A stretch of 64,000 nt of DNA from contig CM060734.1 in the NCBI GenBank assembly GCA_030704615.1, positions 23,312,001 to 23,376,000 on the forward strand, read 5' to 3'. Shown piece by piece: positions 1-57,376 of this stretch. The translations under genes were made by a program, and so were the position numbers. The stretch comes from Takakia lepidozioides. Its lineage: Eukaryota; Plantae; Bryophyta. Numbering within the stretch: the first letter of the stretch is position 1; each line of letters starts with the position of its first letter. Under the pieces are notes generated by a model. That model saw only the letters and a list, made by a program, of their open reading frames with translations, was not told the DNA's origin and did no database searches.

Positions 1-3000
1 TTTGTATCGCATAATCCTCAGCCATGTCGAAATTCCCCTCCACAGAACCAGTAGTATCCGAATCATCTTCCCCCTGTTGGCCGTACTGTTTCCTGTCCTT
101 CGGTGGCTTTGCAGGAATCCTGACTGGCATACAGTGTATGCCCACCATGTCTGGAAGCTTATACTGTAAGACTTGTGTCAACCTCTTGTGGGCAAGATTA
201 GTGTATGCCCGCAGCTCATCTTTTGTATAGCTGAGTGGTGTGCCAATGACTTTGGAGAAGTGTAGCCACTTCCTGGCTTCATGCCCCTTGGGAAAAATGT
301 GGTCAAGACCCAAGTTCTCCTTGGCTAAGTTCTCCAGAGCAAAAATAAACCAAGAACGGAGTTGGGGGTCCTTCTGAAGCATGATCCTTACATCATACAT
401 ATATGTATGTGGTGGAACAGAAGGTAACGTCCAATGCTCCCCAGTGGAATAAGTTTGAAATCTCATCTGCACCTTCTGCTGCTCAATGTGATAGCGTGAA
501 ATAAAACAAGCAGCATAATATAGTCCACAACCCATGACCAAACTAAGTACCTCTTTGGTCTTGGTGTAAATGAATCCATGAACAATCTGGAAGGCAATTA
601 ATTCCTTCAGCATGGTTCCCGCTTCAGACCAGTACCGCGCAAAATGGTGATCTTCAATGGGTTTGTCAGTTGGAAGAACTTTAGTCCGAGTTTCCACTGG
701 CAACCAAATGCGCATAATCTGGTAATAGTGTGTCAAAGACTCTGGAGGACTGAATTCTTTCCAAGCCAAATCCATAACAATGGGGATTTGGTTGAAGGGT
801 AGAATCATAGCCCGATTGTATTCAAGTGCAGCAGGAGTAGTAGGTGGGTTAAAAGAAGCATCACCCCAAACCTCAGACAGTGATTGCTGCAGTGCCATGG
901 TATCAACACTGTCAACCTAGTGTGGTTGTTGTGATATTGTTGCCACAGTCCTCCTGATGTTGGCAAGTCCTGCACTTCCTGTGCTGAAGATTGAAAATCA
1001 AAGTCCTTGCCTGCAAATAAGTAGCCATGAGTTGTTCCTCAGGAACAAAGGCCCTTTTGTCAATGTTGGAGCTCAAGTCATCCACTTGAGTCTGCAGCCC
1101 TTCTACATCCTCCTGTAACTCAGCTATCTGACCATAGACATTGTCTATAGTGGTTGTGGCAGTGTTCTGCACTCGTAGCCTGAGATCATTCATCTCGTCT
1201 TGGGTGAGCTTTCTTGGTGCTTTCCCTTCCACTGGCCCTTGTGTTAACCACTCTTGCAAAAGATGATTATCCACTAAGTCCTGTGTAACACCACGGAGAT
1301 CCTGCTCCTCCTTGAGCCGATATGCTTCCAACTGCTGTTGTAAACTCTCCATGCGCTTTGCATGAGGCTCAACCAAAGCTGCACAGGCAGCTGACAGATT
1401 ATTGGCTTCTTTCCAGGCCCTTTCACTCACAGAAAGTTCATTCTCCCGTACTGTGATTGTTTGCTGCAATTCAAAGATGTACATGTCCTTCTGGGCATCG
1501 ACCTGGTGGAACTGCTGAATGGTATCCTCATTGCAACAGATAGTAGCCTTCATGTCAGCAATGAGTTTTCCCTGCTCCATTGACTCTATCTCCGCCGTTA
1601 TACATCTCTCAACTTGGTTCTTGACTTCCAGTGCAATCATCTCCAGATTAGTCGTTAGTGTGACACACTGTATGATCATTTTCTGATGGACTGCTTCCAA
1701 TTCTGTATGAAGCAACTTCACTTCATGCAACTTACCCTCATGCTGAATCTATATCTGATATAGCTGTTCCGCACTTCATGTAACTTCTCCTGCTCAAGAC
1801 CTGCTTCAATTAAATTTTCCTTCGCAAGCTGTAGGGCAGCTTTAGTGTCCTCCAACTCTTTCTACAACTTGAGGTTGGCCTCCACATCCACCCTATTTGC
1901 ACACTCAGTGGCAATTCTTTCCTCAAGCTCTTGCTTGAGCTCCTCCCGCAATGCTGCCAATTGAGTGGAAGGAACATGAGTCTTGACATAGGTGCCCAAC
2001 ATATTGAGAGTCCTGCTTATGGAACTCATGAGCATGGCCTGCTGTGGGTCTTCATGGAAAATTTGCTGTTGTTCTTCCTGATTCTCTATAGTTTGATGTT
2101 TCACAAACCAATCAGACCATGATCCCACAAGATCTTCTTCCTGAGCAACCTCATCTTCCACAAGTGCTGCAGTACCTTTGCCCTTTACCCCTTCAACCTC
2201 CGCCACAGGTTTGGGCATAACCTGCACAGCAGGGATTTCCTTGGGCAGACTCTGCATCTTTGGTACCATGGGGTCTCCGACCATGCCAGAGTTTTCATAG
2301 AGAAGGTCGCCCTTCTCAATTTCTGCCACTACTTGCTCTGTAGTGGGGATGTCCAATCCCTCTCTCTCCACAGTAAGAGGTTCTAGTGTAACAGCAACTC
2401 CAGTCTGAGTTACCACTGGGGCAACTTGGTCAGCTTGCTGTGCTGGCCGTGGTACTGAAGTGACTTCTATCTCCCTCTCTAATGGCCGTGCTTCCAGTAA
2501 TAACAACCCATTGTGCTGCTGCACCCCATCTTGTGCAGGAGCTATGGAAACATCATCGTGAGGGTTCCTTGTGGTCAGTGGATCCACCATTACAGTTGCG
2601 TCCCTCTTCTGTCTCTTGGACTGGTGCTACCTCTCTAATCCTCTTTCACTTTGTGAAGAGCCTTGCTCCTCAACTGCAGTTGTGGCTGCCTCAAACACCC
2701 CCATTACTTTGCGTTCTTGTGCATCAAGCAAGCAAGAATCAAAGATGATCTGTGCAATAATTGGGCCAGACACAATAATTGGAGACTTGGTAGTAGTATT
2801 TTGTAATCGTTTCATCTCCTCCACCAGACCACTGTGCATCATCTCTGCCCAAGCTGCATCCTCTCCTCTCAATGCTTTCAGAACCTCCTTCGTAAAAGAT
2901 CTGCTAAGATACTGTTGGTTCTGTTTCATGGCAAACAAAATGTTTAGTATCTGGCCAATTTCCCTCAACCCTGGATACTCGGCTTTGGTGCAAGTGAATC

Positions 3001-3290
3001 CCTGGTTCCTGAAGAAACTCGTTTCTTGGAAAAGATCCCCTACTTGCAATCTTGTCCTCGTCCACGCTCACATTACCAGATGGTAATTCAAAAAGCTGTT
3101 GCAAGTACTACGGAGTAACTTGTATATCTACACCCTTCACCTGGGTAACTCCCGTCTTTGGCTCAAAGTTCTTGATGAACTGGATCATCAATTCCCGATG
3201 ATGCAAAGACCACTCTTTGTGCAACACTCCCTCCAACCGCAATTCCTTCAGCAGCTGCACTGCCTGCGGTGTGGCGATTGTTTGCCTCTA
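1..3290 (-). pseudogene. Disrupted long extra ORF of the gypsy element: N-terminal region resembling Athila/Tat-type 3' ORFs, then coiled-coil, then an unknown C-terminal domain
   Basis: Manual translation near 3090-3290 gives LLKELRLEGVLHKEWSLHHRELMIQFIKNFEPKTGVTQVKGVDIQVT, similar in pattern to ORF 63053-63517. ORFs 912-1730 and 1862-2590 are heptad/E-Q-rich. Stops and frameshifts separate the pieces. Confidence 0.5.
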
Positions 3291-3860
3291 TAAGATTGTC
3301 ATGCTCTTCACTCGTAGATCCTCCATCTCTCTAATTCGCTTCATCCCGGACAAACAAAAAGGCCTTGTTTGGAATAATTGCAGGAAAACTTGTAATGCGT
3401 ATAGCATGAAAGTGTGATTAGTACAGAATGGAACAGACAAGTGGGTGTAAGCCTGCGGGGCTTGCAAATAGTGAGTGAGAGAAAAAGTACTTTCGACCTG
3501 TCTTTCCTTGCACCACTGCATAAGAAGTAGAGCTAGTGTATAGTCCGTGATATCCGCCATAGCTTCAAAGCTATAGCTTTGATTGCCCCTCCTGTCGAGA
3601 CATTGGTTATCCGGAATAACGCCTATTCTTCCGTTCATAATCTTCTTAGTTTCTTGTTCTTGTTTCTTGAATGGAGTCTCTTGCACAAAATTCACATTAC
3701 TGATTGGCCATTGCCTCATTAGGTAACTTCTCATTTTTACCCTAATCTGTTCACATTCCATCTTGGAATGACCACTAGGACTGCATATGTGGCAAAGGTT
3801 CCCCTTTGCCGGACGCGTTAAGTGTTCCATTACCTGTCCTCTTGATGCATTAATGGGCAC
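3288..3860 (-). CDS. CCHC zinc-knuckle-containing ORF within the retroelement
   Basis: Motif CHICSPSGHSKMEC (C-x2-C-x4-H-x4-C). Confidence 0.5.
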   Translation of the reverse strand: MPINASRGQVMEHLTRPAKGNLCHICSPSGHSKMECEQIRVKMRSYLMRQWPISNVNFVQETPFKKQEQETKKIMNGRIGVIPDNQCLDRRGNQSYSFEAMADITDYTLALLLMQWCKERQVESTFSLTHYLQAPQAYTHLSVPFCTNHTFMLYALQVFLQLFQTRPFCLSGMKRIREMEDLRVKSMTIL

Positions 3861-4164
3861 ATAATAAGTTTCGGCTGACGTACCGGGTAGGTACTTTGAC
3901 GGACCTATTTGTCTCTTTGTGCACGATGGCGCCCGTTATTGCAGTACATGCAATGCGGAGTGCTTTGCCCCTTAGGCCATGTATTTGAATTCAAACACTC
4001 TCATGTTTCCCTCTGTCCGCGTGACACATTCTCCGAGTTTGACTTCCAAACTGTCTTTACACTTACCGGCCACTTAACTGACGTTAACTCGTGTCTATCT
4101 GTCACTGCCCCTATGGACTGTGCGACCTGTGTGGGTTGTGTTGCCTGTGTTGGGCTCTGACAAG

Positions 4165-4280
4165 TTGTGGTAAGCTGTGATATGCTGTAATAGGCTGTGG
4201 TGGGCTGTGATATGCTGTGTTAGACTGTGGTGGGCTGTGGTATGCTGTGTTAGACTGTGGTGGGTTGTGATGGCTGTGTG
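4165..4280. repeat. Tandem minisatellite, 10-bp subunit with 30-bp higher-order period
   Basis: About 4 iterations of tgggctgtga-tatgctgtgt-tagactgtgg and variants. Confidence 0.85.
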
Positions 4281-4808
4281 AACACCTGTGTTCTGTGCTA
4301 TGGCCATACACATTCGGCTTTATGACAAGTGCTTCAAGCTCCGCTGGTGCTACCGGTGTAGTTTGTGACTGCATCTGTGTTTCAAATGCAAATCATGCTG
4401 CAATGGTCTATCATGGATACCACTGTATCCCTTCAACTTATTGGCATTGACTCTACCAAGCATCTCTTTGTTAATGGTTTGTAACATAGCTGTGTTGTTA
4501 TCATACATCTTATGTATGACATAAGCTCTTTTCCATGGTGATTTAAGCTTAAAAGCTTTAATCTTTCCTTTCTTCTGCAACCACAGTACCAAATCACCTG
4601 TCTTAAAAGTCTTCAATTTACCTTCATCAAACTGATCCTCCTCTTCATCTGAATTCTGGTCATGTTATCTGCTGCATTAGCACGTACTTCTTCCACATGA
4701 TATAGTTCATGTTTCCTTACTTTAATTGAATCATCCAATTCCATTCTCCTTCCCCATTCAGTTCTCATGGTAGGTAATAAGAATTCTACTGGAAGTAAAG
4801 CTTTCATA

Positions 4809-5337
4809 TGTCGTGCGCATACGCATCGCTACACAACTACATCGCTGTCCAAACCACACCACACATATATGCACAATAAAGTAGTCTGCCACAATGATAT
4901 GAAAACTAAACTCACACTGTCTTTGTTGACACAAAACACGAAATACAATACAATCACTCGTTAAAATAAGAGTTGAGCCAGGGGCACCCCAAGCTATGGG
5001 GAGTCCACCCCACAACATCCTACTCTCCCTCCATAAGTACACTTAGATGCTAAGCAGCAAGGGAGCTTGGTCGTGCATGCTCAACTCGAGAGAGATGAGC
5101 CACACGACTGACGAGCTCGTGAAGATAAGATGGTTCAGGTGTCAAGCTAAACTTGACACCTGACTTAACACTTGAACTAATTCCAAGTGTTAAATACAAA
5201 TAACTAGATTTATTCTAGTTAGTTTCACACTGTGTTTATTTAACTTGACAGCTGTCGTGCGCATACGTATCACTACACAACTACATCGCTATTCAAACCA
5301 CACCACACATATATGCACAATAAAGTAGTCTGCCACA
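4809..5337 (-). repeat. Probable 3' LTR of the methyltransferase-bearing gypsy element, with 85-bp direct repeats at both ends
   Basis: TG...CA termini. On the minus strand a purine tract (AGGGGGAC, ~5341-5348) sits just before TGTGGCAG at 5337. Segments 4809-4893 and 5253-5337 are near-identical. The unit interrupts the integrase of the older element at 4808. Confidence 0.65.
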
Positions 5338-5594
5338 ATTGTCCCCCTAGCTGGTGGTTAGGTCCCTCTAACTCCAGATAGCTACAAGATGTAATAGCCA
5401 CAACCGTACTAAGTCCTCTATCACTGTCCCTATTATACTCAAACTCTATAGACCAAGAGGCCGGGTACAAGAGCAACCCCATCGTTAGTCGCCGTCTTGC
5501 AATCTGTGAACTTGAGTCAGGATCTCGTGTGTTGGTCTCCTAGTAGCTTGGCCTTGCATTTCTTGTTAGTCTTCCATGGTTGTATCCACTCCCA

Positions 5595-5897
5595 CTATCC
5601 AATGCAATGCGGACATAACCAATCCCCATCAAGAACCATCTCAAAAGGTGGAATCAAGCATCCCATATGCCAACCTCTAGAGCATTGATCACACACCAGC
5701 ATGGTGGCTGCCCCTCTAGCAGACCCACACAACATGCACCTCAAACTTGCAGGTACCACTGCCAGGTTTGGGTCAACCCTTCCATCAACATTTGGAAGAT
5801 GACATGGTGCGCAATTACGCACCTGGTCCTTCCAAATCATGCCATCCTGACCCTCCAAGCTTAGGACTCCTGAGAGCAACACCTCTCGAACCCTCAA
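5595..5897 (-). pseudogene. Integrase C-terminal extension with PHD finger
   Basis: CMLCGSARGAATMLVCDQCSRGWHMGCLIPPFEMVLDGDWLCPHC is a C4-H-C3 PHD with the conserved W before the last CxxC. Confidence 0.9.
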
Positions 5898-6002
5898 AAT
5901 AGTACGTCATGCAGTCACATCCAAGGTCGTAAGAGTAGTCTGCGAGAAGGAGGCAAGTGATGCTTGCTTACTGAACCTGTAGCCCATGGCTAACCAAAGT
6001 AA

Positions 6003-6660
6003 CTAAAGGTCCCAATCTCCTAGGTGTCCCTTCTGCAAGCCATACTTGCGCAAACCCCACTTCACTGTCTGAACAACCCTCTCTGCCAAGCCATCGGCCT
6101 CAGGATGATCCCGAGAAGTGGTGCGGTGGTCTACCAAGGCCTTGTCACACAACGCCTGAAACTCCCCCAAGAACTCTCTCCCTTGGTCCGTGAGCACCTC
6201 AGCTGGAGCACCGAATCGGCTAAGTACACAATCCAAGAATGTATACGCAGCTCCCTCACTAGCCATATCAGGCAATGGAACCAACTCGATCCACTTGGAG
6301 AAGTGCTCCACCATCACTAACACGTACTTGTTGTGGCGCATGGTCAATGGCAACGGCCCTGCAAAGTCAAGACTCCACCTGTAGCCCAATCATATGATCG
6401 AAAGAGGGTGCAATTGTGGAGTAGGGGCATTGAATGAAGCACACACCCTGTCACACACCATGCACCTAGCCACAAATTGTTGCACCTTTGTGTACATACC
6501 ACGCCACCAATACTGCCCCCGCAGTAGACTATGAGTGCGTTGCACCCCAAAATGCCCCAACTCCTCATGGGCATGCCGTACTAACCGTGCCCGCTAGGTT
6601 GGGTGAGGCATAATCCTCACTCGACCATCTTCCCACACTCGGAGCACGTGTGTCCCTTCC
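6003..6660 (-). pseudogene. Retroviral-type integrase (H2C2 zinc-binding domain and rve core)
   Basis: In-frame HAHEELGHFG...YWWRGM...CMVC, followed by WSLDFAGPLP, VLTDQGREF and ADGLAERVVQTVK (D-D-E triad). Confidence 0.92.
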
Positions 6661-6950
6661 TACTTGAACCTCTTGGCTCGTTGTAGGATCCGATCCCTCT
6701 CCTTGGCAGTCACAGTGGCTGTCGTGCCCCCAGTGCGGAGATAGTCCAACACAGCTGAATCCTCATGTATATCTTTGGCGCCACCTTGCTCATTGTTGGC
6801 CTCAGGGTCCTCAGACACTCTGTTTATAGTCATCCCTGTTGTAGGTCCAACCTGGCCTTCCGCTACCAAGATACACAGAAATGCAGATGCATGCCATCCG
6901 GGCACCATCTCCTCGTCCGTCTCACCATGCAACCGAGCTCTAGTGTCATC

Positions 6951-8336
6951 CTACTGGCTCGTGCATGGATTGCGACTCAACCCATCCGCATCCCGATTGA
7001 CCAAACCCGGTCGATGCACAACCTGAAAGTCATACTCTTGAAGTATGAGTGCCCACCGTGCAAGCTTCCCCGTAAGCTTGTCTGACTCCATCAACCACTT
7101 GTATGGCTGGTGATCCGTGACAAGGGTGAAGAGATTGCCATATAGATAGCACCTGAAGTGTGCCACGGCCCACACTGCAGCTAAACACTCTCCCTCATAT
7201 GAGCTATACTTAGCCTCTGCAGCGTTGTTCGAGCGACTGGCATAAGCCACTACGAACTCTCTTTCCTCATCATCCACCTGTGTGAGCACCGCTCCAAGCC
7301 CCAGCATGCTCCAATCTGTATGCAGCTGAAAAGGACGCCCCCTGATAGGTCGTCTCAAGATGGGCGCCGAGGTCAACCTCGCCTTGAGCTCTTGGAAAGC
7401 TTGTTCTTGCTCATCTTCCCACTGCCACTCCTGATTCACCTTGGTCAGCTTGGTTAGAGCCTTTGCAATGGCACTAAATCCCTTGACAAACCGTCTATAA
7501 TAGTTTGTCAACCCCATGAAAGCTCGAACTCGGCTCACATCCGTGGGGCGTGGAATCTGTGTAATGGCCTCTACCTTAGTCTGCTGTACCCCCAATCCTC
7601 CAGGATATATCATGTGACCCAGATACTCAATCTGGTTATGGAAAAACTTGCACTTCCCCGGATGTAACTTCAATCTGCGCGTCCTCAAGCGCTCAAATAC
7701 CACCTGAAGATGTCTCTCATCCTCCTCCACCGTAGCACTAAAGATGATGATGTCATCTATGTAGCACCAAGCAAACTCCACCCCTACTAGAATCCTGTTC
7801 ATGACTCTCTGAAACTCTACAGGAGCGTTCTTAAGCCCAAATGGTAAGAACCGCCACTGGTATAGGCAATCATTTCCGTGCTCATTGATCCCCCATAATG
7901 TCGTCTTTTGCTTATCCGCCTCCTTGATCGGCAACTGGTGATATCCGGATCGTAAATCCAAAGTGCTAAAGACCTTGGCATGCCCAATGGCATCAAAGAT
8001 CTCCTCTGGTGTTGGCATGGCATACCTATCGGACTTGGTCTGACGATTTACAGGTCGGTAATCACCGCACATACGTCTCTCCGTCCAATTGCCATAGACA
8101 TCATTCTTGGCTGGCATCACTGTGGCTGAAGCATACTCTCCACCAGATAGCTCCACCAAACCAGCTTCCCAGAGGTCCTGAGTCCTCATCTGAATCAGGG
8201 ACCTCTCCATGTCACTGTATCTATAGGGTCTCTGAAAGATTGGCGTGTCAGTGGCCAATTCAATGCGAATCTCTTGACCCTTCAGTGCTCCCAAGTCCTT
8301 CAAACTGAAGGCAAAGCAGTTCCTGTAAGCCCTCAA
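6951..8336 (-). CDS. Ty3/gypsy reverse transcriptase and RNase H (segment of a disrupted polyprotein)
   Basis: RMCGDYRPVN, LDLRSGYHQ, LPFGLKNAP and YIDD for RT. LHTDWS, YSSYEGECLA, TDHQP and NRDADGLSR for RNase H. Confidence 0.96.
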   Translation of the reverse strand: MRAYRNCFAFSLKDLGALKGQEIRIELATDTPIFQRPYRYSDMERSLIQMRTQDLWEAGLVELSGGEYASATVMPAKNDVYGNWTERRMCGDYRPVNRQTKSDRYAMPTPEEIFDAIGHAKVFSTLDLRSGYHQLPIKEADKQKTTLWGINEHGNDCLYQWRFLPFGLKNAPVEFQRVMNRILVGVEFAWCYIDDIIIFSATVEEDERHLQVVFERLRTRRLKLHPGKCKFFHNQIEYLGHMIYPGGLGVQQTKVEAITQIPRPTDVSRVRAFMGLTNYYRRFVKGFSAIAKALTKLTKVNQEWQWEDEQEQAFQELKARLTSAPILRRPIRGRPFQLHTDWSMLGLGAVLTQVDDEEREFVVAYASRSNNAAEAKYSSYEGECLAAVWAVAHFRCYLYGNLFTLVTDHQPYKWLMESDKLTGKLARWALILQEYDFQVVHRPGLVNRDADGLSRNPCTSQ

Positions 8337-8639
8337 GAACCGCCGTATACGTCGTCTCTCTCCTCCAGTGACTATGGGTCCAACATCAGGCTCCCAGTTG
8401 TCCTCCGTGACTGCAACCTTGAGTCCAGCAGGCTTAGAGATAGAAGACGCGTCCCGTGGTTGCTATGCTGCAACCTCTTGAGCAGTGACCACTACCTGGT
8501 TTGTCAGTGATAATGTCTCATCCTGCCCCATCATCCCATCCTTAAGGACCTCCTCAACCCGAGAAAAATCCCCAACCTCATCCATCACCGCCGCCTTGGC
8601 TGCCAACTCCTTCTGAACCTTGAGCACCTCCCACGTGTG

Positions 8640-9635
8640 CTATGGATGCGGCCTGCACCTCGTGGTCCTCACCTGTTCGCCCCCACTCGCTGCCTGTACC
8701 GTCTCGGTAGGCAAAGAGACTATCAAGGGAAGTGTACTGCATACTCTGCGCTGCTCAGCCATAGCCAAGCTGATAATCCAGGTCAAGCAATTGAGATCCA
8801 TGGCTTGCCCCAACATCTGACGATGTGATGCCTCAGAAAGAGATGGCACCGCCGTGGTACCAGTGATAAAACCCATTGCCCACTCGCGCTCATCAGCATT
8901 GGGCTCCACTAACTGCTGCAACTGGCTATCCCACAAGAGGCCAGGTCCACCATCCCGGAAAGCATGAGATCCTGGAAAACTGAGCAGTGTAGGCAATGCT
9001 GCTCGTGGGTGACCCACCTTATTGACCACTGCCAAAGGTGATCAGTCATCGTGTCTCACACGCTGAGACTGCCTCCCTATGTCCAAAATGCTATTCACTG
9101 TCAGGTTTGGTGGCCGCTGCACCCCATCAAATGCACGCTTGAGCAATGCAGGTGGCATCAAGTTGGTCCACCATAGTCGTGGGTGATGAGCCCGTGACCC
9201 CACTGCAGCTGCATCCAACAACACTGCTGACCCAAGCCAAGACCGCACTTGATGTACAATGGCCATCACCTTGGCCCGAGAATCACCCATCGATGGCACG
9301 TTCTCCAAGATATATGCCGGAGAGTCTGTCTGCTGAAGCTGTAAATAGCGCATGACCCTCAACATCTCCCAAAACATGCGTGACCTTGAGTCTTGTAACC
9401 CATTGCCATACCCAGCTGATGAAAGCCCTTGGCAGGGCCAACCTACCACTACTAAGTGAATAGGGCCAACCCGCTCCAAATCATGCGCCCCCAGCAAGGA
9501 GATGTCTACTGGCAAGGCTTGTTGGTATCCACGAACTGCAGACACTGGCAACAAATCAGGGTACTACTGCACCAACTGAGCAACATGGCGCAGTGAGACG
9601 CGTCGTGCAGTCTCATCCCTCTCCACATATAAACA
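8640..9635 (-). pseudogene. DNA (cytosine-5)-methyltransferase domain, DNMT3-like, N-terminally truncated
   Basis: YVERDETARRV (motif II region), GPIHLVVVGWPCQGLS (motif IV, catalytic PC), YILENV (VI), SRAHHPRLWWTNL (VIII), EREWAMGF (IX), RQMLGQAMD (X). Motif I (FxGxG) is lost at the junction ~9635. In-frame stops at ~9564 and ~9042. Confidence 0.88.
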
Positions 9636-12600
9636 TGCATTCACCTTTTTGCCTTGGTTGTCCCATCATTGATTGGGGCAGAATAGTATTCATTCCACAA
9701 CTTCTCCTCATCTCTGTTACTTGTTTTTTGATACTTTCATGTTGTCACATTGGTAGTATCATGTCAAAGTCACTCCAAACTAGATTCACTCAACCAGCTA
9801 ACTTGCAGAATTCAACATGGAAATTTAGGGCCGATTCTGATTAGAGGGAAAAACAAGGTGAAATGTGTTGAATAAGATGGCCTTCATTAGCAGTGTCTGA
9901 TTTTATAAATTGTGCCGCTGCTGCCAGTTGACCATCTGCAGGTTTGTTGTAGCTATAGAGTCAATCTGGAGCTTGAAGCCCGACCCTCTTGGGTGAATCT
10001 GCACCCACACTCTATCCCTGCTCCTTCAACTATCTATGCCTCAGCACAAATCATGCATATATCATTGTCTTGCTGCTAGCAGCTGATGATGACAACCTAG
10101 CTTTGTTCTTACACCCCAACCCTATTTGGAAAAACAGGCTGAAATGTGTTGAGGAAGATGCCTTCGTTAGCAGCACCTCATTCCAATTGTGCTGCCGCTA
10201 CTGTTTCCACTTGCAACAATTGACCATCTACTCCAGCTGATTTCTTTTAGCTATTGATCCCTCAGCCTGAACCTAAACATGAATATGGACCTCTATCCCT
10301 GGTCCCTCAGCTATCCCTGCCCGTGTACAGATCATGAATACATCCCTCAGCCTTGCTGCTAGCAGCTGACAGTGACGGCGTGAAGTTCTTCCAAAAAAAT
10401 ACCCCAACCTAAGACTTAACAGTAGTTCCAATTCTGAATTGCAACTGCTTTTCTCTGTAGTCGAACAAGCACTCACCTTTTTGTCTCCATTGTCCCCCCA
10501 CTGACTGGGGTCGGAAAGTGTTCATCCCAAAGCTTCTCTTCATCTTGTTATCTATTTTTGGGTACTTTCCTGCTGCCACATCAGCAGTAACTTGTCAAAG
10601 TCACTCCAAACCACCCCACATCCACCCAACGAGCTAACTTACAACATTCAATATGCAAATTCAGGGCTGGGTCTGATGAGAGGGAAAAATAGGCTGAAAT
10701 ATGTCGAAGAAGAAGGTGCCTTCACCATATTGTCCTCGACCTTGTGTCATGACCCATGGAGGATTTGACTGACCATGCACCCAAGAGGACCTCTTGTGTG
10801 TGCGAAGTGTGTGCTGCTTCCACAGGGAATTGTAGGCGATCTGGACTTGAAATCCAGCCCTCTTGGATGAATCTGGACCCACACTGCTCCCTGCTCCGTC
10901 AGCTATCCATGCCTCTGAACAAATCATGCATACATCCTTGCCTTGATGCTAGCAGCTGACAATAACACTCTAGAATTATTCCAGCAAACACCCCAACCCT
11001 ACCTATCACACTAGTTCCTATGCTGACTTGCGTCTACTTCCAACATGCATTCACTTTTTTGCCTGGATTGTTCCACCATTGACTGGGGTCGGAACCGTAT
11101 TCATTCCAGAGCTTCTCCACATCTCTATTATCTGTTTTTTGATACTTTCATGTCGACCACATTGGCAGTAACATGTCAAAATCACTCCAACGCCACAATA
11201 GATCCACCAACGAGCTAACTTGTAGAATTCAACATGAAAATTTAGGGACGACTCTGATAGTAGGGGAAAACAAGGTGAAATATGTTGAAGAAGGTACCTT
11301 CATTAGCAGTGGGCCTTGTTCTATCAATTGTGCTGCTGCCATTGCTATTTCCAGTTGACCATCTACCCACTTGTAGCCGTTGTGCTATTGAAGAAGGTGC
11401 CCCCCCTTCCCCCATCATTTGATCATAGGTCTCCAAAGCCTGCATACCATGTCCCTGCTGTGCATACCCTGCAAGCATCGCGTTCCATGACACCACATTT
11501 GGTTCAGCCATAGTGTTGAAAACTCCCTTCGCATCCTTAATGCACCCACATTTGGCATAGACGTCGACCAGGGGAGTGTTCAGGATGACATCTGGTACAA
11601 TTCTAGCTTTGATGATGTCACCATGGACCTCTTTCCCCTTTTCCAGAGGTCCCAGGCTTGCACACGCATTGCAAACATGCGGAAGCGTGATGTGGTTGTG
11701 CTTCACCCCTTTGCGCAACATTTGCTCATAGGTCGCCAAAGCATTCCTACCACACCCATGTTTGGTAAATCCTGCCAACATTATATTCCACATGATCAAA
11801 GATCGTTGAGGCACTCTGTAGAAATCTTGGCAAGCATCCATGATGCTCCCGCACTTAACATACATGTTGACAAGGGTGTTGAATAGAAAAAACATTTGGC
11901 ATGAATCCACTTTGGATAATGTGAGTGTGCACCTGATTCCAGCTTCCAGACCTAGAGCCTTTGTCAGTCTGCCTGCCTCACAAAGCATCTTCACATGCTC
12001 CGCAGAAAAGGCATTGTGCCCTCTCTTGATCCTCTTTCAGAAGCTGCGGTCATGGTTAAGGACGTGCCTGATTTTATCAACTGTGCCGCTGCAACTATTG
12101 CCTTTAGTTGACCATGTACCCATTTAGGTTTCTTGTAGCTATTGATCCACATGGAATCACAGGTAATCTAGAGCTTGAAGTCCGGCCCTCTTGGATGAAT
12201 CTGGACCCACACTCTATCATTTCTCCTTCAGCTATCCATGCCTCTGCACAAATCATGCATTCATCTTTGCCCTTGCTGCTAGCAGCTGACAATGACAACC
12301 TATGAAACACCCAATCACACTAGTTCCTATGCTGAATTACGTCTGCTACTCTCTGTCATCTAATAGGCATTCAACTTTTTGCCTCGGTTGTTCCACCATT
12401 CACTGGGGTCAACAAAGTATTCATTCCACACCTACTCCTCATCTCTGTTATCTGTTTTGGATACTTTCCTGCTGCCACATCGGCAGTTACTTGCCATAGT
12501 CATTCCAAACCACCACAGATCCACCCAAAACTTATAGAATTCAATATACATCTAAGAGCCGAGTCTGATGAGAGGGCAAAACAGGCTGAAATAGGTCGAA

Positions 12601-13200
12601 GAAGAAGGTGCCCTCACCACATTGTCCTTGACGATTCAATATGTAAATTCAGGGCCGAGTCTGATGAGAGGGAAAAACAGGCTGAAATAGGTCGAAGAAG
12701 GAGGTGCCCTCACCACATTCTCCAAGGCCTCCATACCACGCCCCTGTTGTGCACACCTTGCAAGCATCGTGTTCCACGTGATGAAATATCGTTGAGGCAT
12801 TCTGTTGAACACTTGGTGAGCATCCATGATGCTCCCGCACATAACATATATGTTGACAAGGGTGTTGAGTAGAAAAATATTTGGCGTGCACTTTGGATAA
12901 TGTGAGTGTGCACCTGCTTTCTAGCTTCGCTTGGCCTTTCATCTTGATGCACTTATGCAAGAGACAGACATACGTATCTGAATCTGCTGAAATGCCTCCT
13001 TGGTTTAAAGTCAGTAGAGCCTCTTTCAGTCTGCCTGCCAAAGCATCTTCACATGCCTAAGTGCCAGAAGAGGCATTGTGGACTCCCTCTCTTGACCTCT
13101 TCCAGAAGTTGTGGTCATGGTTGAGGTGCCTGACTTTATCAACTGTGCCGCTGCAGTTGCTGCCTTTGGCGATGCAACCATGCACCTCTTTGCATCTGGT
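9636..13200. repeat. Diverged tandem segmental duplications (about 4 copies of a modular 0.3-0.6 kb unit) interleaved with PPR fragments
   Basis: The block gcattcaccttttt...gtcaaagtcactccaaac...ctgatgagagggaaaa recurs at ~9636, ~10469, ~11046 and ~12367. The block ctcttggatgaatctggacccacac...gctagcagctga recurs at ~9985, ~10860 and ~12188. Confidence 0.8.
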
Positions 13201-14430
13201 AATCTGACAGGCATTCACCTTGGTACAATTCTAGCTCTGAAGATGTCACCATGTGGACCTCTTTCCCCTTTTCCAAAGCTGCCAGGGCAGTGTTCAGATT
13301 GACATTTGGTACAATTCCAGCTTTGATGATATCCCCATGCACCTCTTTGCCCTTCTCCAGGTCGGTTGCTAGGCTTGCACAAGCATTGCAAATGCACACA
13401 AACATGATGTGCTTCCATTGCTCATAGGTCTCCAAAGCCTCCATTCCACATCCCTGTTGTGCATACCCTGCAAGCACATCATATCGCACTCCATGACACC
13501 ACATGTCGTTCAGCCATAGTGTCGAACACTCCCCTTTGAATCCTAGATGCACCCACATTTTGCAAACATGTTCACCAGGGTATTGTTCAGAATGTCATCT
13601 GGTACAATTCCAGCTCTGAAGATGTCGCCATGCACATCTTTCCCCATTTCCAAAGCTGCAAGGGCAGTGTTCAGATTGACATTTGGCACAATTCCAGCTT
13701 TGATGATATCCTCATGCATCTCTTGCCCTTCTCCAGGGCTGCCAGGCTTGCACGCACATTGCAAATGCACACCACATCTCGTTCAGCCATAGTGTCGAAC
13801 ACTCCATTTGCATCCTAGATGCACCCACATTTTGCAAACATGTTCACCAGGGTTTTGTTCAGAATGACATTTGGTACAATTCCAACTCTGAAGATGTCAC
13901 CATGGACCTCTTTCCCCTTTTCCAAAGCTGCCAGGGCAGTGTTTAGATTGACATTTGGCACAATTCCAGCTTTGATGATATCCCCATGCACCTCTTGCCC
14001 TTCTCTAGGCCGGCTGCCAGGCTTGCACAAGCATTGCAAATGCACACAAACATGATGTGCTTCCCCCATCATTTGCTCAAAAGCTCTCCAAATGTCCTTG
14101 CCGTGCATACCCTGCAAGCATCGCACTCCACGACACCACATCTCGTTCAGCCATAGTGGCGAACACTCCCTTTGCATCCTAGATGCACCCACATTTTGCA
14201 AACATGTACACCAGGGTATTGTTCAGAATGACATCTGGTAGAATTCCAGCTCTGAAGATGTCGCCATGGACCTCTTTCCCCTTTTCCAAAGCTGCTAGGG
14301 CAGTGTTCAGATTGACATTTGGCACAATTTCAGCTTTGATGATATCCCCATGCACCTCTTGCCCTTCTCCAGGGCTGCCAGGCTTGCACAAGCATTGCAA
14401 ATGCACACAAACATGATGTGTTTCCCCCAT
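11242..14430 (-). pseudogene. PLS-class pentatricopeptide repeat (PPR) pseudogene fragments, tandemly amplified
   Basis: Repeated NTLVNMYVKCGSIMDA, VVSWNAMLAGYAQQGHGMQALETY and ACASLGPLEKGKEVHGDIIKA motifs. Two LCEAGRL-type N-termini (~11990, ~13040). Near-identical 270-360 bp units at 13290-14420. Frameshifts throughout. Confidence 0.9.
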
Positions 14431-14444
14431 CCTTTGTTGACACT

Positions 14445-17400
14445 GATCCCCTGCAACTAAACTTTTTAACTGAGACCCTTTCACTGATCCCCCCATGCAG
14501 AACTAGATAAGGCAATGAAAGTGCATTGGCCAGCACAAGAGTACTGCAACACCACTACAAGACTGATACAAGTCTGATACAAGTCTGATTTTTGGATCAC
14601 CAATCCCCTGCTCCTGATCCCCTGATCCCCTGCGCCTCCTGGACCCCCGAACACTGATCCTCTGCAACTAAACCTTTAAACTGATCCCCTGCAACTAAAC
14701 CCTTTAAAACTGATCCCCTAATCCCCTAATCCCCTTCCACTGTCCCCTCATGCAGAACTAGGTCAAGAAAGTGTATTGGCCACTACGTCAAGAGCAGTAC
14801 AAGACCACAACAAGACTGTTTATCTGATGAGTGTTCCCGTGCTTCTCATCCCCTGATCCCCTGAGCCTCCTGGTCCCCTGAACATGGATCGCCTACAACG
14901 AAACCTTCTAAGTGATCCCCTCTCCCTGATCCCCCCATGCAGAACTAGGCAAGACAATGGCAGCGGGAAGGGGAGTGACCACAAACCAAAATGGCGTTAA
15001 TCTCAGCATCGGCATCGTCCACAATGAATGTGTTGGGACGCCAATCTGGCTGAGCGGCATGGAGCCTTTGGCGAAGAACCAACATCCAACTTGACAAATC
15101 GTTGGCAGTGTTTCTTGAAGATATTATGTATGCAACAGGGATGTCATTCAGCCAAATGTCGAACACCATAAGAGTATATATGGCATACTGCACAAAAAGA
15201 CAAAATGTGCAACGTAAGTACGTTTGTTTGAAATGTACCAGACATTTTACTGAAATTAATGATACGAAACTACAACAGATCAAACCAAATAACATTCAGT
15301 ACATGTGGATGATAAGTGGGACGTGACCCATGTCATTGCTCCCCCTAATCCCCAAGGCATTAATTTTATTATTCTGTGATCCCCCTTGTGGGGTATGCCA
15401 TGATCCCCTGCAAATGGTCCCAACATGTACAGAGTAGTCTACAAAAATGCGGGTGTTGGCCCATGTGTCTGGCCCCCTAATGGGCTGAAAGCTGCCGTGC
15501 TCTCCAATCCGATACGTCTGTGGCCGTAATGACCCAAGTGCCGTGATCCCCTTCACATTGGATCATGCTATGCTCTCATGCTCCCAGGAGTCTTGTTGTC
15601 ATAACATACTACAACAAAAACCATGTTGATAGAGCTGACAAGGTCTGCCATGGCGACATTGACCCGAGTTCAAATAACACCCGTTCCGCGCACACACCTC
15701 ACCTTAGTGAAGAGGTAAAGAGGTGATAACGGATAGCACACGCGTTGGTTTGTCGCCCGCTGAAAGAATGTCCCAACATGAGCAACAGGTATTTGGCAGC
15801 AAGCTCAATGGATTAGAGAAGTGGTGTCGCGATGATGTTGCATGTAAGACTTTCAAGCGGCATAAGGACGAGGGGACCAGTCTGAAGATGTGGAAGGATG
15901 CCCAGCCACAAAGTGTTTTCTTCTATCAAGAGGACACGTCCAATACCCCTGCTGAAGGAATACGGCGGGGCAATGTTGACCTCAAATTTGCCATTGGCAT
16001 ACAAACAAAATTTCAGAAAAAAAAAACAATGCTCGAATTGGGTGACAAACGAATCGTATCTTGTGATGTGACCTTCGGAACCAATGAACATAAGCCATTG
16101 TGTGTACTCGAAGGCTTGAGAAGGATCCAGGTAGCATCGACCTATCCTAAACTGACAAAGACAACCCCTCTTGATGGACTCTCCCTGAACGACTTTCTTC
16201 CGTCTCGGCCCAGGCTTATGGTTGTTGTAAGAAGGCGATGAAGCATCCAGCACACACCCTCTTCTCCCGTTCCTTCTTTCAAAGAATTTTTATTGACAAG
16301 TATGACATTTATGCGCTTGTCCTCAGGTCCATAGGAACAATGGAACCTGAACAATGATGAAATCTAAGTCAGTGGAGTGAATACTCAGAGCAAGAGAGCA
16401 TAGTACAGAACAGAAGAGCAAACAATGTAAACAAGCAGCATGCCATGAGAAAGAACACAGTGAGACCATCCAGAAACCACAAAGGAGAAGGCGGACTTTA
16501 TCACAAGAGAGCAACTATTGGCCCTTGGAGCTAAGAGTTCGCCCTCCTCATGCTTTCCCTTTTTAGGCACCGTTCTGTTGAAGTGAGTGGGTGCCTCTGG
16601 CCTTTCTTCCTCCCCTCTCACAAAATCGTCGATCCTCATCCAAGGAATAACTGCAACATCCGTATTGACACGATGTCCACCTCCACTTGAAATAGTCGGA
16701 GTCCATAGAAGGCTCTTGTGGTTGAAGGAACCATCCGGGGGGATTTGCAAAGTGCTACGAAGCTGTGACAGAAGGAATGACGTGCGCAACTCCGAAGATG
16801 CACTCATGATGCCTAGCAGCCCTGCAGGAACAGTACACACCAGCAAACTTACTCGCAAGTGCAGCATACACACGCGCAAAGAGGAACAAACCTGAGAATA
16901 GCAGGAAACCCTAAATTTGGATACATCCACTCCATTCATCTCGCAGACCAAAATGGCGGGGGACGTGCATGGCTGTTGGATGAGAGACGTTGGATGGACG
17001 GCACGGATGAACGGGATCACAACGACGTGGGAAATAGCCGTGTCAGTTGACACGTAGTAGGGGGATTGCCGGAGGGGGGTCAGCCCCTGCAAAGGAGGGG
17101 GATCGGCAGCTGGGGGAGCAGATGGAGGGGGGATCCCGCCAGGTGGTGTGGGGGATCGACGGAGAGGGGAGCGCCACGTGCCTATCCAGATGTGGGGGAC
17201 GAGGGGGGGTCCCGCCATTGAGGGGCGGGAGGATCGAGGGCGGGGGACGGGCACGTGGCATGGCGGTGGACCCGGGGGATCAGCCCCTACAAAGGAGGGG
17301 GATCACCAACGGGGGAGCGGACGGAGGGGGGATCCCGCCAAGTGGTGCGGGGGATCGACGGAGAGGGGAGCGCCATGTGCCTATCCAGATGGGGGACGGG

Positions 17401-28453: not shown

Positions 28454-30140
28454 TCAACGATCACCGGCTCTGCTTACGCTTCTGTAAACCCATGGAGGTT
28501 CGATAAGGACGAACCCTGATGTATCCAGACCCGCCTTCTTCGCTTTCTGTTTTTGAATTGTCACTTTCATGTTGCGGCGACAAATAGGTGGATCCACAGA
28601 AAACTCCTCGGTAAGCTGTGGTCGGAATGGAAGCATCAAATCGGATGGCAGCATGGAGTCGCTCTCCAATCGCTGAACAATTTTTGGCGGACCAGAGATT
28701 ATCGAACTGTTTTCTGGCCTCCCGCTCCTCCACCTTTTTGCGCTTCAGCTCCTCTTTTTCCACCTTATCGAGAGCACACTTTTGCTTATTCAATTCGCGC
28801 TCTTTTTTACGCTGCTCCCGCACTTTCAGGGCTTCTTCTTTCCTAGAAATATTTTGCTCCAAAGTTAGCAAGTACTCATCTGAGGTCATGAGAATGGACT
28901 TGTTGTAGTCAATTATTGGCTCCGAGCCATCTCCATTCAATCGTCGTCGAGGTGCTACTGGTATTTGTGGTAGACTCAAAAATTGAGTGGTAGAGTACCG
29001 TTGAATGGGTGCTCCTGCAACTATTTCCAGCTCCGGTGAGGATCCAGTGTCGCTAGATTGGCTGGAGGATAATCGCTCTGTACCTGGCGGGACCAACTCA
29101 TTTTCGTCCTCTTCCTCCACGAAGTAGTGGTGCGTACCTACCTCATCATGTGTCTTGGATATGTTATTTTCCAAAATTTCCTCAACTTGCAAGTCAACAG
29201 TGGCAGTCCTTATATCTTCTTGACCAGGATGGGTGTCGTCCTCCGGGACCTCCATCCTATAACCCTTGCTGGCCCATGCGGTTCTACATGGCATCCGGAT
29301 TGAGAGGCTTGATCCCAATCACGGCAAAACTTTTTCTTACATTTTCAAGACTCTTCGTTTTTTTCAAAGCTAGTGAAACCCAATGTGCGAGATCCTCTTT
29401 CAAGGCTGTGCCTCCCTTGTGTGCCATCGTCTAAACATCACGGTAAGCCCTGAATGTGCTCTGTCTGTCACTGTTACATACATGTACCGATATGTATTGT
29501 GAAGATTTACAGACATGCAGACTGTAAATGACCTTTAATGCACTAGTGGTTGTCGGTGCTATCATGAATGAATGCTGGAGGGACCTACATTCCGAATTTC
29601 TATATTTTCAAGGGGAAGAGGTTCAAACGTAACTATATTTTCAAGTGTGAAAGTGGTGCTACGATGGCCATGCAACCGAAGGCCTGGATGACGGGTTTTC
29701 TCTCTTCATGAAATGGATCTCCCATTTTATCAAAGCAGCATAGAAGGTCGACAATCCAATTACTCCAGAGAACAGACACTTGTTGATTATGGACGGTCAT
29801 AACAGCCATGTTACCATTCAGGTCGTTAAACAAGCGAAAGCCGTGGGGCTGGATCTGATCACGCTCCCCTCGCACACCTCCCATGCACTCCAGCCTCTTG
29901 ATGTCTCAGTGTTTAAACCTTAATGTACAATGCGGGACCCTTTCTTTGCAAGAACCAACGCTCCTCCATTCCGGCCTGCCTGGGCCTTTGACTCGTCACA
30001 ATTCCAGATTTTATCCGGTGTATTTGTTCAGCTCATAAATTTTAGCAAGATTCTCGTAAAACATTTCCACATTAGATGGACACAAGCCCTTCGCCCGGCC
30101 AGTCTCAAATCCTTGTGCATTCTTCCTAGGCCGCCCAAGT
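28454..30140 (-). mobile_element. pogo/Tc1-superfamily (DDE_1) DNA transposon relic with an inverted catalytic segment
   Basis: Minus strand: GRAKGLCPSNVEMFYENL...IWNCDE (29930-30140). Plus strand: MNAGGTYIPNFYIFKG...KAWMT and HLLIMDGHNSH...LPSHTSHALQPLDVSVFKP (29546-29921). Minus strand again: STFRAYRDV...KEDLAHWVSLAL...GIKPLNP and a K/E/R-rich tail. Confidence 0.85.
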
Positions 30141-30189
30141 TCGTCACTCAAGTGCCTGGAAATACCTGTCCTGCATATACTAAGATAAG

Positions 30190-33100
30190 CTATGATACCC
30201 AGCACCTTTAAGTTGGGTCTTAATAAGACCCAAGAGGCACTGATCAGTGAGTCTGCCTCTCCAATCACTGAATTCCATCCCTGTCTAACTCTTCTAACAG
30301 AAAGCTGCTGCTCAGCCATATCAGCAGAAATCAAAGAGCTGGAAGCTTCATCCCAAAAATGCAAGATATGTGCCAATCCTGCAGCTTCCCATTCCGCCCA
30401 TCTTTTATCACATGGAATTAAAACCTCACTATCCCGGTTATAGTTACCAAAGAGAGGTTGCCTCAACACCTCACTGAAGGTAGAGGGACTTATCTGAACC
30501 AGGAAAGGGCATAACTTGCACCACACCAACCAGATAGATTGCCAAGCCCGAGATCCCTGTCGAGGCTTTGCATTGAGCTTACCACCTTGAACAATCCATC
30601 TTAATGAATGTGCCCACTTATCACTGGTACGAGGCGTTAGCCAGCAGATGTTGCCTGACCAGGCGGCTCCAAGGGCTTGAAAGATGAGTTAGAGTTCGAG
30701 GCACCCATTTAGCAAGCAGTGCAGTTATCTGTGCTTGAGGGTCCAACACACCCAACCCTCCATTCTTTTTACTTTGCGTCAGCTGATCCCAGCTCACAAG
30801 GGCTCTTTTGGTGGAAGAAGGAGTTGCTCCCCAGATGAAATTTCTCATCAGCGATTTAACCTTCTTTATAATCTCTGATCCAGGAGACCATACAGATGCC
30901 AGGAACCACAAGGAGGCCAAAAGAACCTGATTTACAATCAGCGCTCTGCCAACTACCGAGAGATGCAGGGAACACCAGTGGGCAAGTTTCCTTCTCAACT
31001 TAGAAAGGACAGTAGCAAACCTGACATCGATCAGTTCCCACCAGCTGTCCCAGCAGCTCATGTGACTCTCCATCCAAGAGCCATCTCAGGGCCAGCTCAA
31101 TACCCCACGGCGCAATGTGACTAGCAGAAGTGGTGTCCGATAACTGGCTCAGCAAGCCCACCGACTTTTTCCAATTAATTCTGAACCCGAGGCTCCACAG
31201 AATGCCTTAAGCAAACTGAGCGCAGCATTAACATTGGATAGGGAAGAGTTGTTAATGAATAAGGAAGTATCATCAGCATACAGCAAGGATCTAATGGAAG
31301 ATGCAATGTAGTTACCTTGGGAATTAGGGATAACCAACCCCAAAGAGTCTTGCCTCTTATCCATCAGATGGTCCAGCCCGTCCGCTGCGACCAGGAAAAG
31401 GAAGGGAGCCAGCGGGCAGCCCTGTCGGACTGACTTGAAGAGAGGGAAGGCTTTGGAGAGCACTCCGTTAACCATTACTCTGCTCGAGGCTGAAGACAGC
31501 AGAATTTGGATCCACTTTAAGAAGCTCCCATTGATTCCTGTCGCTTTCAAAGCCCCTAAAAGATAATTCCAGCTTATATTATCAAAGGCTTTCTCGAAGT
31601 CTAACATCAGCAATGCTAGAGGTTGGTTATCAGTCCGAGCCAGATGCAGTGCCTCATTGGTAAGGAGGATATTATCAAGTATCATCCTACCTTTCAAGAA
31701 TCCAGATTGCTCTGGTCTTATCAACTTAGAAAGCAAGGGTTACAAACGGCGAGCAAGAGCCTTAGCAATAATTTTATAAGCAGAATTCAATAAAGTTATG
31801 GGTCTGTAGTTAGAAAGCTGATCTCTGTCACCTTTTTTGTACACGAGGGTTATGACACCCTGCGACAACTGTGAGGGCATTATCCCTTTTTCCAAGATAT
31901 CATTGGCCATGCGCAGGAAGTCATCCCCAGCCACCTCCCACAGGGCAGTGAAGAACTCCACCGGCAGCCCATCCAATCCAGGGGTCTTCAGGGGACTCAA
32001 GGCTTCAGCAGCCTCCAAGAGCTCAAAATCAGAAAAGGGTTCAGATAGGGCAGTCTTTTCAGAGCTAGAGAGAATATTAGGAAAGGATTGCAGGACCTGG
32101 ATCATCCACTTCCTCATAGAACAAATGAGTAAAATGCTCTGCAGCTGCAGCAGCCATTTTCTTTGGCTCAGTGACTGTGAGACCGCTGGGGATCGCAATG
32201 GCATGTAGGTGAGTAGCCTCCCTTCTCTGCCTTGCTTTCTGAAAAAAGTAACCCGTCATCTTTTCACCCTTCAATGACCAGTTAACCCCAGCTTTAATAC
32301 GCAAGAATTTTTCCTCATCATCATCAACTTCAGCCAGATTTCTTTTGGCAGTAAGGTAAGACTCCATTGTCATTGCACCATGATTACCCTCTTCAATTCG
32401 TCTTTGACAGTGCAGAAGGCATTTAGACAAAGCATTACGATGTTGAGCTCTTTCCAAGGCTATAGCACGAGTGAGGGCTTGAGCCAGCCTTCTTGTAGCT
32501 TGCAGCTTATGCAAGAACGAGATGGAAGGGGATTGGAATCCATTGCCAGCAGAAGTCCATTCAAGCTTCAACTTCTGCAGACAGTCAGCCTTTTTTAAAA
32601 TTCCAGGGTTTAGTTTGAAATAACCTCTGCCTCTAGAATGCAATCCAGGCGGTTTAAAGTCGGCTGAAACCACTGCATGATCAAAGTCAGCTAGGATGGG
32701 TGACTGCGGCATACCTTTGGCCCATGAGAGGGGGGAATGTGAACAGTAGATCCTGTCCAGACGGGCCATACACAGATGTGGAGGATTCCTCAAATTAGAC
32801 CACGTGAATCTTAAGCCAGAGGGAGAGTCTGAAAAAATATCCACCAAACCCACTGAGAAACAAAGCATATCCCATGCAATTTGTTCCTCATCCGATAAAG
32901 AATGAGAGGCATGCACCAATCTATGATTGTAATTGTCAACCATATTGAAATCCCCCGCTAGTACCCAGTTAAGGATATTGGGAAAGCTTGTAATCTTATC
33001 TCTGATAGCACTGAGCACGGTCATGGGACTGGTTAGGCGCATAGACATTGATAAAAGCAGTCTGTCCAAAGGGGGAGGCAGGTTCAGGGAAGAGGCACTG

Positions 33101-41209: not shown

Positions 41210-41518
41210 GGCCTTCTTCCCCTAGACTCTTTCTTCTGAGTGCACAACCCTTCTCTTCTGCGCTACACCCTCCTGGACCACCTCCAGTACCTACCTCTAT
41301 GGCCTTTCCACACAGCGACCACTATACCGCCCTCCTTCCAAATGGCCTCAAATCTGGGAAGGGCTTCGGAATACTAAACAGCTCTACTCCCCAAGATTCC
41401 CACCCTACCCCAAGATTCCAACAGCCACATGCCAATATCAGGCCGAGATGTCCCGAGGCCCAAGCCAATACCACGGCTTCAAAACCACAATTTTTACCTC
41501 ACTCCTGTACTGTCCCGG

Positions 41519-57344: not shown

Positions 57345-57376
57345 GAAATGGAGGTCTTGCAAGCACTCTGAATGCT

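Follow-up and report, generated by a model that had tools for sequence, protein, structure and literature searches.

Since 2018 it has been asked why retrotransposons carry their own silencing enzyme, and the known hosts are algae that are hard to handle. The question is raised again by a locus of Takakia lepidozioides (Bryophyta), which lies in a 64,000-nt stretch of contig CM060734.1 (assembly GCA_030704615.1, positions 23,312,001–23,376,000), here called the window. A cytosine methyltransferase (DNMT), a reverse transcriptase (RT), an RNase H (RH), an integrase (INT) and a PHD finger share one minus-strand frame in this locus. The first-pass annotation took them for a single gypsy polyprotein. 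We found that the locus is almost certainly a dead, 5′-truncated copy of a high-copy Ty3/gypsy family. Comparison with its relatives indicates that the stop codon at 8465, between DNMT and RT, is a conserved feature of the element and no decay lesion. By the same comparison, the first open reading frame (ORF1) of this subclade is Gag-protease-DNMT, and the remainder (Pol-PHD) is likely made by readthrough of the conserved UAG.

Reading frame and domains of the window copy

The six ORF starts at 9554, 9035, 8336, 6932, 6389 and 5897 were all confirmed in a single minus-strand frame (9629–5595). From 9563 down to its terminal stop (5597), this frame holds nine in-frame stops (9044, 8642, 8465, 6953, 6662, 6596, 6392, 6005 and 5909). 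The other two frames hold 72 and 81 stops over 5400–9800. Hidden Markov model searches with Pfam recovered all four domains named in the first-pass annotation (DNA_methylase, RVT_1, rve and PHD), and also RT_RNaseH and Integrase_H2C2. The catalytic PC and ENV motifs, described there as intact, are both present, as are YIDD and the integrase D-D-E. The features are as follows (LTR, long terminal repeat; PR, protease).

8760–9629, minus strand: DNMT3-type C5 cytosine methyltransferase, motifs II–X, the 3′ part of ORF1 (Gag-PR-DNMT in relatives); motif I missing because of the 5′ truncation; in-frame stops 9566 and 9044; DNA_methylase 6e-10; best PDB matches DNMT3A/B
8466–8759, minus strand: C-terminal tail of ORF1, with a private stop at 8642
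8457–8465, minus strand: conserved stop TAG with CAA CCA directly 3′ of it (UAG-CAR-YYA), a putative readthrough signal that would join ORF1 to ORF2 (from variants, linkers and the motif of PMC3542737)
7500–8366, minus strand: reverse transcriptase, YIDD at 7763; RVT_1 1e-29
6954–7499, minus strand: connection and RNase H; RT_RNaseH 7e-35
5910–6593, minus strand: integrase with H2C2 zinc finger, DDE core and partly deleted C-terminal part; Integrase_H2C2 6e-17, rve 1e-14
5595–5740, minus strand: PHD finger at the end of ORF2; PHD 3e-10, and PDB search
5341–5350, minus strand: polypurine tract, the core CTAGGGGG being common to relatives on comparison
5253–5339, minus strand: repeat B, copy 1, 87 nt, 95% identity to 4809–4895
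5247–5256, minus strand: palindromic B/A junction GACA-GC-TGTC, putative internal integrase attachment site; the same tetramers are the ends of complete relatives
4896–5250, minus strand: repeat A, copy 2 (copy 1 gone with the 5′ end), flanked by the two B copies, an arrangement shared with L035, L052, L064 and L066
Within 4896–5250, minus strand: three hairpins in the predicted fold of the first 130 nt of repeat A copy 2
4809–4895, minus strand: repeat B, copy 2, closing the element on its right with GACA; next comes TATG, which belongs to the interrupted neighbour

The frame had been described as broken only by stops. A single frame does run through, but the copy is also 5′-truncated near 9629, and the stop at 8465 is conserved. 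In addition, the alignment shows an in-frame deletion of ~267 nt (~89 codons) near 5944, by which the integrase C-terminal domain is partly lost. No gag, protease or motif I was found anywhere within the 64-kb window. The variant tables show that host copies differ from the window at stops 9566, 8642, 6953, 6662, 6596 and 5909. Stop 8642 is private, as position 8641 differs in 419376/419612 of the summed depth in run X1. Stops 9044, 6392 and 6005 were judged private from protein alignments only. The best-matching run placed 51,637 contig pieces on window positions 4500–10000, with 30/30 bins covered; the summed depth of such pieces does not equal copy number.

A conserved stop between DNMT and RT

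Among host copies, four runs at an 8% threshold list no variant at positions 8457–8468, where the depth also peaks. A metagenome scan, in which 80 of 165 loci were kept, gave DNMT–RT linkers for comparison. Fifty-nine linkers were recovered, namely the window and 58 of the 80 loci (of the other loci, two were excluded for insertions, and in 20 one of the two sides was missing). An equivalent in-frame stop is present in 56/59 linkers, as TAG in 40 and TAA in 16, and none reads CAG or TGG. The exceptions are TAC in two (L031/L042, one insertion) and a nearby indel in one. The stop site is found in 36 of the 37 equal-length linkers, and any other stop in at most nine. The idea of one uninterrupted methyltransferase-RT-RH-INT-PHD polyprotein is therefore not supported, since in this subclade the stop parts DNMT from RT.

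The relative L040 is otherwise intact and consists of a 1369-aa Gag-PR-DNMT frame, TAG CAG TTA, and a 1047-aa Pol frame. A gag-like region and an aspartic protease are present in the ORF1 of relatives. Annotated ORF1 proteins end 47–162 aa past motif X overall, and those of Marchantia end 96–97 aa past it. Many algal members are single ORFs (e.g., P0107 and P0118), so the conserved stop is a feature of this subclade. With the stop after DNMT, the enzyme would be made at the Gag level and would likely be untethered from the PHD finger.

The bases after the stop in the 56 linkers are CAA CCC (45), CAA CCA (3), CAG TTA (2), CAA TCA (1) and near variants (5). CARYY is kept in 54/56 and the full CARYYA in 6/56. 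The context UAG-CAR-YYA occurs in the window, L012, L040, L043 and L047, and is the type I readthrough signal of tobamoviruses (PMC3542737). Across families whose synonymous sites are saturated, the residue encoded by the hexamer varies (CCA, TTA, TCA) while the nucleotide pattern is kept. In eight loci CARYYA follows 8 of 1165 TAGs, and 4 of these 8 are the stop site itself. The signal as predicted here from sequence differs from its tobamovirus use in lying between a Gag-PR-DNMT frame and RT, and in reading CAA CCC in the Sphagnum-type family. The RNA fold 3′ of the stop (−16 to −21 kcal/mol) was calculated without a shuffle control and was not used as evidence.

Several observations weigh against readthrough of a conserved stop. 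P0090, which lies inside the subclade, has DNMT and RT in one open frame, and the L031/L042 insertion reads TAC at the site. The commonest (Sphagnum-type) family has CAA CCC instead of YYA and ATG as the third codon. A Met lies 3–14 codons past the stop in several families, which makes reinitiation possible. Most loci come from this one Sphagnum-type family, duplicates included, which leaves about six independent families as the basis of the stop. The offsets at which stops were tallied in the 59 linkers had also been selected after a first inspection of linkers.

The stop might instead truly end ORF1, with Pol made by reinitiation, leaky scanning or splicing; DNMT would still be at the Gag level. 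A Met 3–5 codons past the stop in the Sphagnum-type family, L043, L044, P0079 and P0080 speaks for this, as does YYC at +4 to +6 in the main family. However, the first Met of the Pol frame is residue 117 in L040 (inside RT), 85 in the window and 48 in L012, that is, inside RT or at its N-terminus. The frame is also preserved in all undamaged linkers, and CARYY is kept as stated above. We consider such a true end of ORF1 rather improbable, and readthrough the likely route to Pol-PHD.

The family in bryophytes and algae

A protein search returned 49 relatives, with 60–70% identity in Marchantia and Calypogeia (ORF1 proteins) and 53% in Sphagnum. Such elements, which the first-pass annotation did not know as well described in land plants, are thus present in them. 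An RT search added further named members in Coleochaete (transcript), Closterium, Klebsormidium and Tetraselmis. Wherever domains continue past DNMT in the metagenome loci, the order is RT-RH-INT-PHD. The gypsy order Gag-PR-RT-RH-INT with a DDE integrase was found, RT-RH-INT in the window and the gag-like region and protease in relatives.

The tree was built with IQ-TREE from a 47-row subset of a 141-row set, and nine short rows were dropped. In it, 37 DNMT/PHD-family rows split from 10 other gypsy rows (support 100/99), and one group joins the window to L012, Marchantia and Sphagnum-type loci (100/98). The angiosperm gypsy elements sampled fall outside the DNMT/PHD clade, and no named vascular-plant member is among the rows listed. 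Relatives, metagenome loci and tree agree that the methyltransferase fusion is family-wide and ancestral, and no chance neighbour, as had been claimed; the fusion is not confined to this locus among copies of the RT family. The Klebsormidium nitens pol protein P0170 lies inside the RT clade; its gene model is without DNMT, and it is at most a candidate for KnitGypsy-Dnmt3 itself. A scan of viral contigs gave 30 loci with weak matches only (25–48%, short stretches), and no viral donor was found in it.

Some members vary from this layout. In one branch (P0041, P0043–P0048, P0177 and P0194; three tree rows, 100/100) DNMT follows RNase H and precedes integrase, a shift of the domain within the polyprotein. 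The C-terminal tails after the PHD finger of P0041, P0047, P0075, P0076, P0172, P0178 and P0194 carry DPWxG and SPW/APP motifs. These motifs resemble an amino (N6A/N4C) methyltransferase, and the elements bearing them may have two methyltransferases, one of them DNMT3, besides the PHD finger, as a parallel to the EpiLTRs. A weak PHROG methyltransferase match (0.008) was obtained in P0076 only among the tail-bearing proteins. L031/L042 and L063/L065 have internal deletions yet retain both ends and target duplications, and were therefore likely mobilised in trans. The P0080 cluster has 226 members, many of full length. One of its proteins, P0199, is a family Pol protein deposited as 'uncultured Synechococcales cyanobacterium', and is probably plant DNA in a bacterial bin.

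Class and conservation of the methyltransferase

A profile of 15 family DNMT domains matched DNMT3A best (6e-22), followed by DRM (2e-10) and HhaI (1e-6). The DNMT model of L040 (pLDDT 82) has a TM score of 0.69 to DNMT3B, and every match listed is a DNMT3. The domain has unpermuted motifs I–X, motif I being taken from relatives, and a compact target-recognition region. Most relatives have other residues at conserved positions of AHHPR and EREWAM, two of the motifs by which the first-pass annotation recognised DNMT3; this is probably decay in the window copy. The DNMT3 assignment itself stands on profile and fold, but these two motifs are atypical of the relatives.

Most of 97 near-complete DNMT domains of the family still have motifs I, IV, VI, VIII and X. 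The ratio of nonsynonymous to synonymous substitution rates (dN/dS) is 0.08–0.18 in the 7 of 10 pairs whose dS is finite and unsaturated. By these sequence measures the DNMT is kept under purifying selection across the family.

It is plausible from the sequences that the element methylates its own DNA, and two results weigh against this. The CpG observed/expected ratio is 0.50 in the element versus 0.30–0.65 in six neighbouring regions; it lies within the neighbours' range, so composition gives no sign of self-methylation. The enzyme of the Klebsormidium element gave no methylation in yeast, a result its authors call inconclusive (PMC5890265). The 29 best-supported transitions private to the window copy (CHG 12, CHH 12, CG 5) were tool-selected from ~560 differences and are uninterpretable.

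Both results would also suit a DNMT that is kept to damp the element's own activity, to bind nucleic acid in the particle, or to methylate host DNA; self-limitation is raised in PMC5890265. On the other side, motifs I, IV, VI, VIII and X are kept in most domains, and the DNMT3 enzymes borne by DIRS elements do methylate CG in yeast (PMC5890265). We regard these other roles as unlikely, though not negligible, and methylation of the element's own cDNA as the favoured function.

The PHD finger

The closest solved PHD fingers in the PDB search are those of CHD4, KDM5B/5A (PHD1), PHF21A and ATXR5. PHD fingers of this type bind unmodified H3 tails, and the ADD domain of DNMT3 also binds unmodified H3. 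In the family, the PHD finger lies at the C-terminus of the integrase, the spot that the chromodomain occupies in chromoviruses, and is ~1000 residues from DNMT in the readthrough product. There is no chromodomain at the integrase C-terminus, unlike in chromoviruses. Most likely the PHD finger guides integration and not the methyltransferase.

The first-pass annotation suggested a self-contained read/write module, in which the element could methylate its own cDNA or insertion site while the PHD finger reads H3 tails. As a rival model, this means one polyprotein whose PHD finger, by binding H3, brings the methyltransferase to where the element inserts. DNMT and PHD do share one frame and are both family-wide, the algal P0107 and P0118 are single ORFs, and the finger resembles readers of the very mark that the ADD domain of DNMT3 reads. 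However, the conserved stop, the ~1000-residue gap and the aspartic protease in ORF1 make such a module unlikely, and the chromodomain-like position points to integration instead. We consider it quite improbable that the methyltransferase is directed in this way.

Ends, repeats and integration route

The 3′ side of the window copy keeps, in order, the polypurine tract (5350–5341), B (5339–5253), GC, A (5250–4896) and B (4895–4809). The complete relatives L035, L052, L064 and L066 have the layout A-coding-B-A-B. Family elements end in TGTC...GACA, of which the window has the right end only. Target duplications of 4 bp were found in 9/9 relatives with both ends (six perfect, three with one transition). 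The first-pass annotation looked to full-length copies with gag-PR, motif I and paired LTRs. The gag-like region, protease and motif I were found in relatives, but two full colinear LTRs were absent from the ends (A-coding-B-A-B or A-coding-B), which we interpret as a permuted B-A LTR.

A 16-nt leader after the 5′ A is complementary to A 164–179 in 7/12 5′ ends, with 16/16 pairs in two. No tRNA-type TGG primer site was seen after A. Tf1-type self-priming may be inferred from this leader–A pairing. With a predicted primer site after A and the polypurine tract before B, the ordinary LTR has the order B-A. The window, L047 and the Sphagnum-type family all have the B/A palindrome GACA-GC-TGTC, from which L040 departs at one base. 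These sites suggest that the integrase would open circularised cDNA at an internal site. Two aberrant A/B joints (L064 and L063) retain bases derived from the polypurine tract or the leader, and such bases are typical of circle joints.

Two counts weigh against this route. The mirror form A-B-A-coding-B, expected from a two-LTR circle, was seen in 0/17 distinct 5′ ends, and 9/17 distinct 3′ ends are without A-B (A-coding-B only). Repeat recombination or short-read collapse could lie behind both.

Under a DIRS/PAT-type route, the transcript would run into the second B copy and the A/B joint would be inherited, with no need for an end-joined two-LTR circle. The joint is indeed alike (AG, or AA by decay) in 6/8 distinct relatives, no mirror-image insertion was seen, and the layout is likened to DIRS in PMC5890265. 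In contrast, an ordinary B-A LTR is delimited by the polypurine tract, which immediately precedes B, and by the predicted primer site, which immediately follows A; the aberrant joints keep polypurine-tract or leader bases. No tyrosine recombinase, the enzyme of DIRS/PAT/Ngaro elements, was matched in the window segments or the intact L040; an rve (DDE) integrase is present instead, together with 4-bp duplications. A DIRS/PAT-type route thus seems doubtful to us, and opening of a circle by the integrase is preferred.

Proposed replication cycle

We propose, with somewhat more confidence than doubt, a Gag-PR-DNMT protein ending at the conserved UAG, leaky readthrough to Pol, packaging of DNMT at the Gag level, and likely methylation of the cDNA before insertion. 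Each Gag translated would bring a DNMT with it, whereas readthrough would yield Pol-PHD at only a few per cent of that level. DNMT would be packed into the particle at the Gag level, and cDNA synthesis would start by Tf1-type self-priming. The linear cDNA would carry B-GC-A at both ends, and these ends would be joined into a circle. DNMT would methylate the element's own cDNA before insertion. The integrase would cut the internal GACA-GC-TGTC palindrome in the upstream LTR, giving the permuted LTR of the integrated form, and the PHD finger may steer integration by reading unmodified H3 tails.

Comparison with known systems

A gypsy-borne DNMT3, KnitGypsy-Dnmt3, has been described in Klebsormidium nitens (de Mendoza et al. 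2018, PMC5890265). Gypsy domains are common to it and the window family, as are an unpermuted methyltransferase of DNMT3 type, purifying selection on that enzyme, and the DIRS-like A-coding-B-A-B repeats that one legend line there mentions. It differs in that DNMT lies in the Pol ORF of KnitGypsy-Dnmt3 but ends the Gag-PR ORF at a conserved UAG here, and in that the present hosts include land plants. With DNMT outside the Pol ORF, the window family is a related variant of KnitGypsy-Dnmt3 and not a member. The available text on KnitGypsy-Dnmt3 is silent on a PHD finger, readthrough, primer site and attachment site.

SymbioDIRS-Dnmt3 (PMC5890265) and the EpiLTRs (bioRxiv 10.64898/2026.05.21.726589) are likewise retrotransposons bearing a cytosine methyltransferase, and the EpiLTRs also pair it with a chromatin reader. 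However, DIRS elements use a tyrosine recombinase, and the DNMTs of EpiLTRs are sister to DNMT4 and occur with Dam and a chromodomain, whereas DNMT3 and PHD are combined here. As in the self-priming chromoviruses Tf1/Sushi and Tcn1 (PMC6317226), the leader matches, as its complement, an internal segment of the 5′ repeat. Unlike these, the family has a PHD finger for the chromodomain, a permuted LTR and DNMT cargo; Tf1/Tcn1 sequences are outside the tree sample.

PHD fingers have been described in retrotransposons before. Chlamydomonas Gypsy-7a_cRei also has a PHD finger, proposed to guide insertion, but its legend places PHD before INT and has no DNMT (PMC9940879). P0191 and P0193, gypsy elements with a Dam domain (PF05869) and the Gypsy-7a-like order of PHD before integrase, fall outside the DNMT/PHD clade. 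REM1 of Chlamydomonas is reportedly another PHD-bearing gypsy element. Foamy virus integrase cleaves palindromic two-LTR circle junctions and gives processed ends (PMC1180852). The opening of a circle at a palindromic junction proposed here is similar, but the cut would lie inside the LTR and not at the LTR–LTR joint.

In the open-access literature no description was found of land-plant members, a conserved stop or readthrough, or primer and attachment sites. Two later papers give 'streptophytes' for Gypsy-DNMT3, which may include land plants. The kind of element is thus already known; what is new is a bryophyte-wide family, predicted readthrough placing the enzyme at the Gag level, and a permuted LTR with a putative internal attachment site.

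Neighbourhood of the element

The window copy is flanked on one side by an interrupted gypsy-like element and on the other by decayed PPR repeats. The former (912–4808, minus strand) is high-copy and begins with an integrase-tail-like piece; zinc-knuckle-like, helical and coiled-coil ORFs come next, for which Pfam gave no firm match. On the other side (9630–14500, minus strand), tandem decayed PPR fragments alternate with a repeated W-W-N-N-rich segment, and 9652–9835 is high-copy in the host. We take these PPR repeats to be of the PLS class, which is not known outside plants, and they fit a land-plant host. A search with host genes gave two matches, both in Sphagnum clusters at 32–42%. The frame open over 806 aa at 38801–41221 (minus strand) encodes a CHHC zinc finger of the U11-48K type, and the relatives found for it are all in Sphagnum clusters. 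Translations of 30011–33237, 41828–44327, 57347–58249 and 60602–62251, judged by eye, point to two remnants of LINE-like elements, one of a MULE-like transposase and one of a second gypsy element; the last region has a tblastn match.

Significance of the family

Taken together, these elements may, as a tentative and rather unlikely whole, form an unnamed green-lineage LTR clade abundant in bryophytes, which would combine a capsid-level DNMT3, a leaky stop, self-priming, a circle, cDNA pre-methylation, a cut inside the LTR and PHD-chosen chromatin with unmodified H3. If this is true, an LTR element would integrate routinely from a circle and arrive already methylated. Because such elements integrate without paired LTRs, standard LTR finders would likely miss or misclassify them. 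The family copies also inflate DNMT3 counts in bryophyte annotations. The conserved stop predicts the place and amount of enzyme made. Marchantia polymorpha is tractable and has several annotated full-length ORF1 genes, so the question of why a retrotransposon carries such an enzyme becomes testable.

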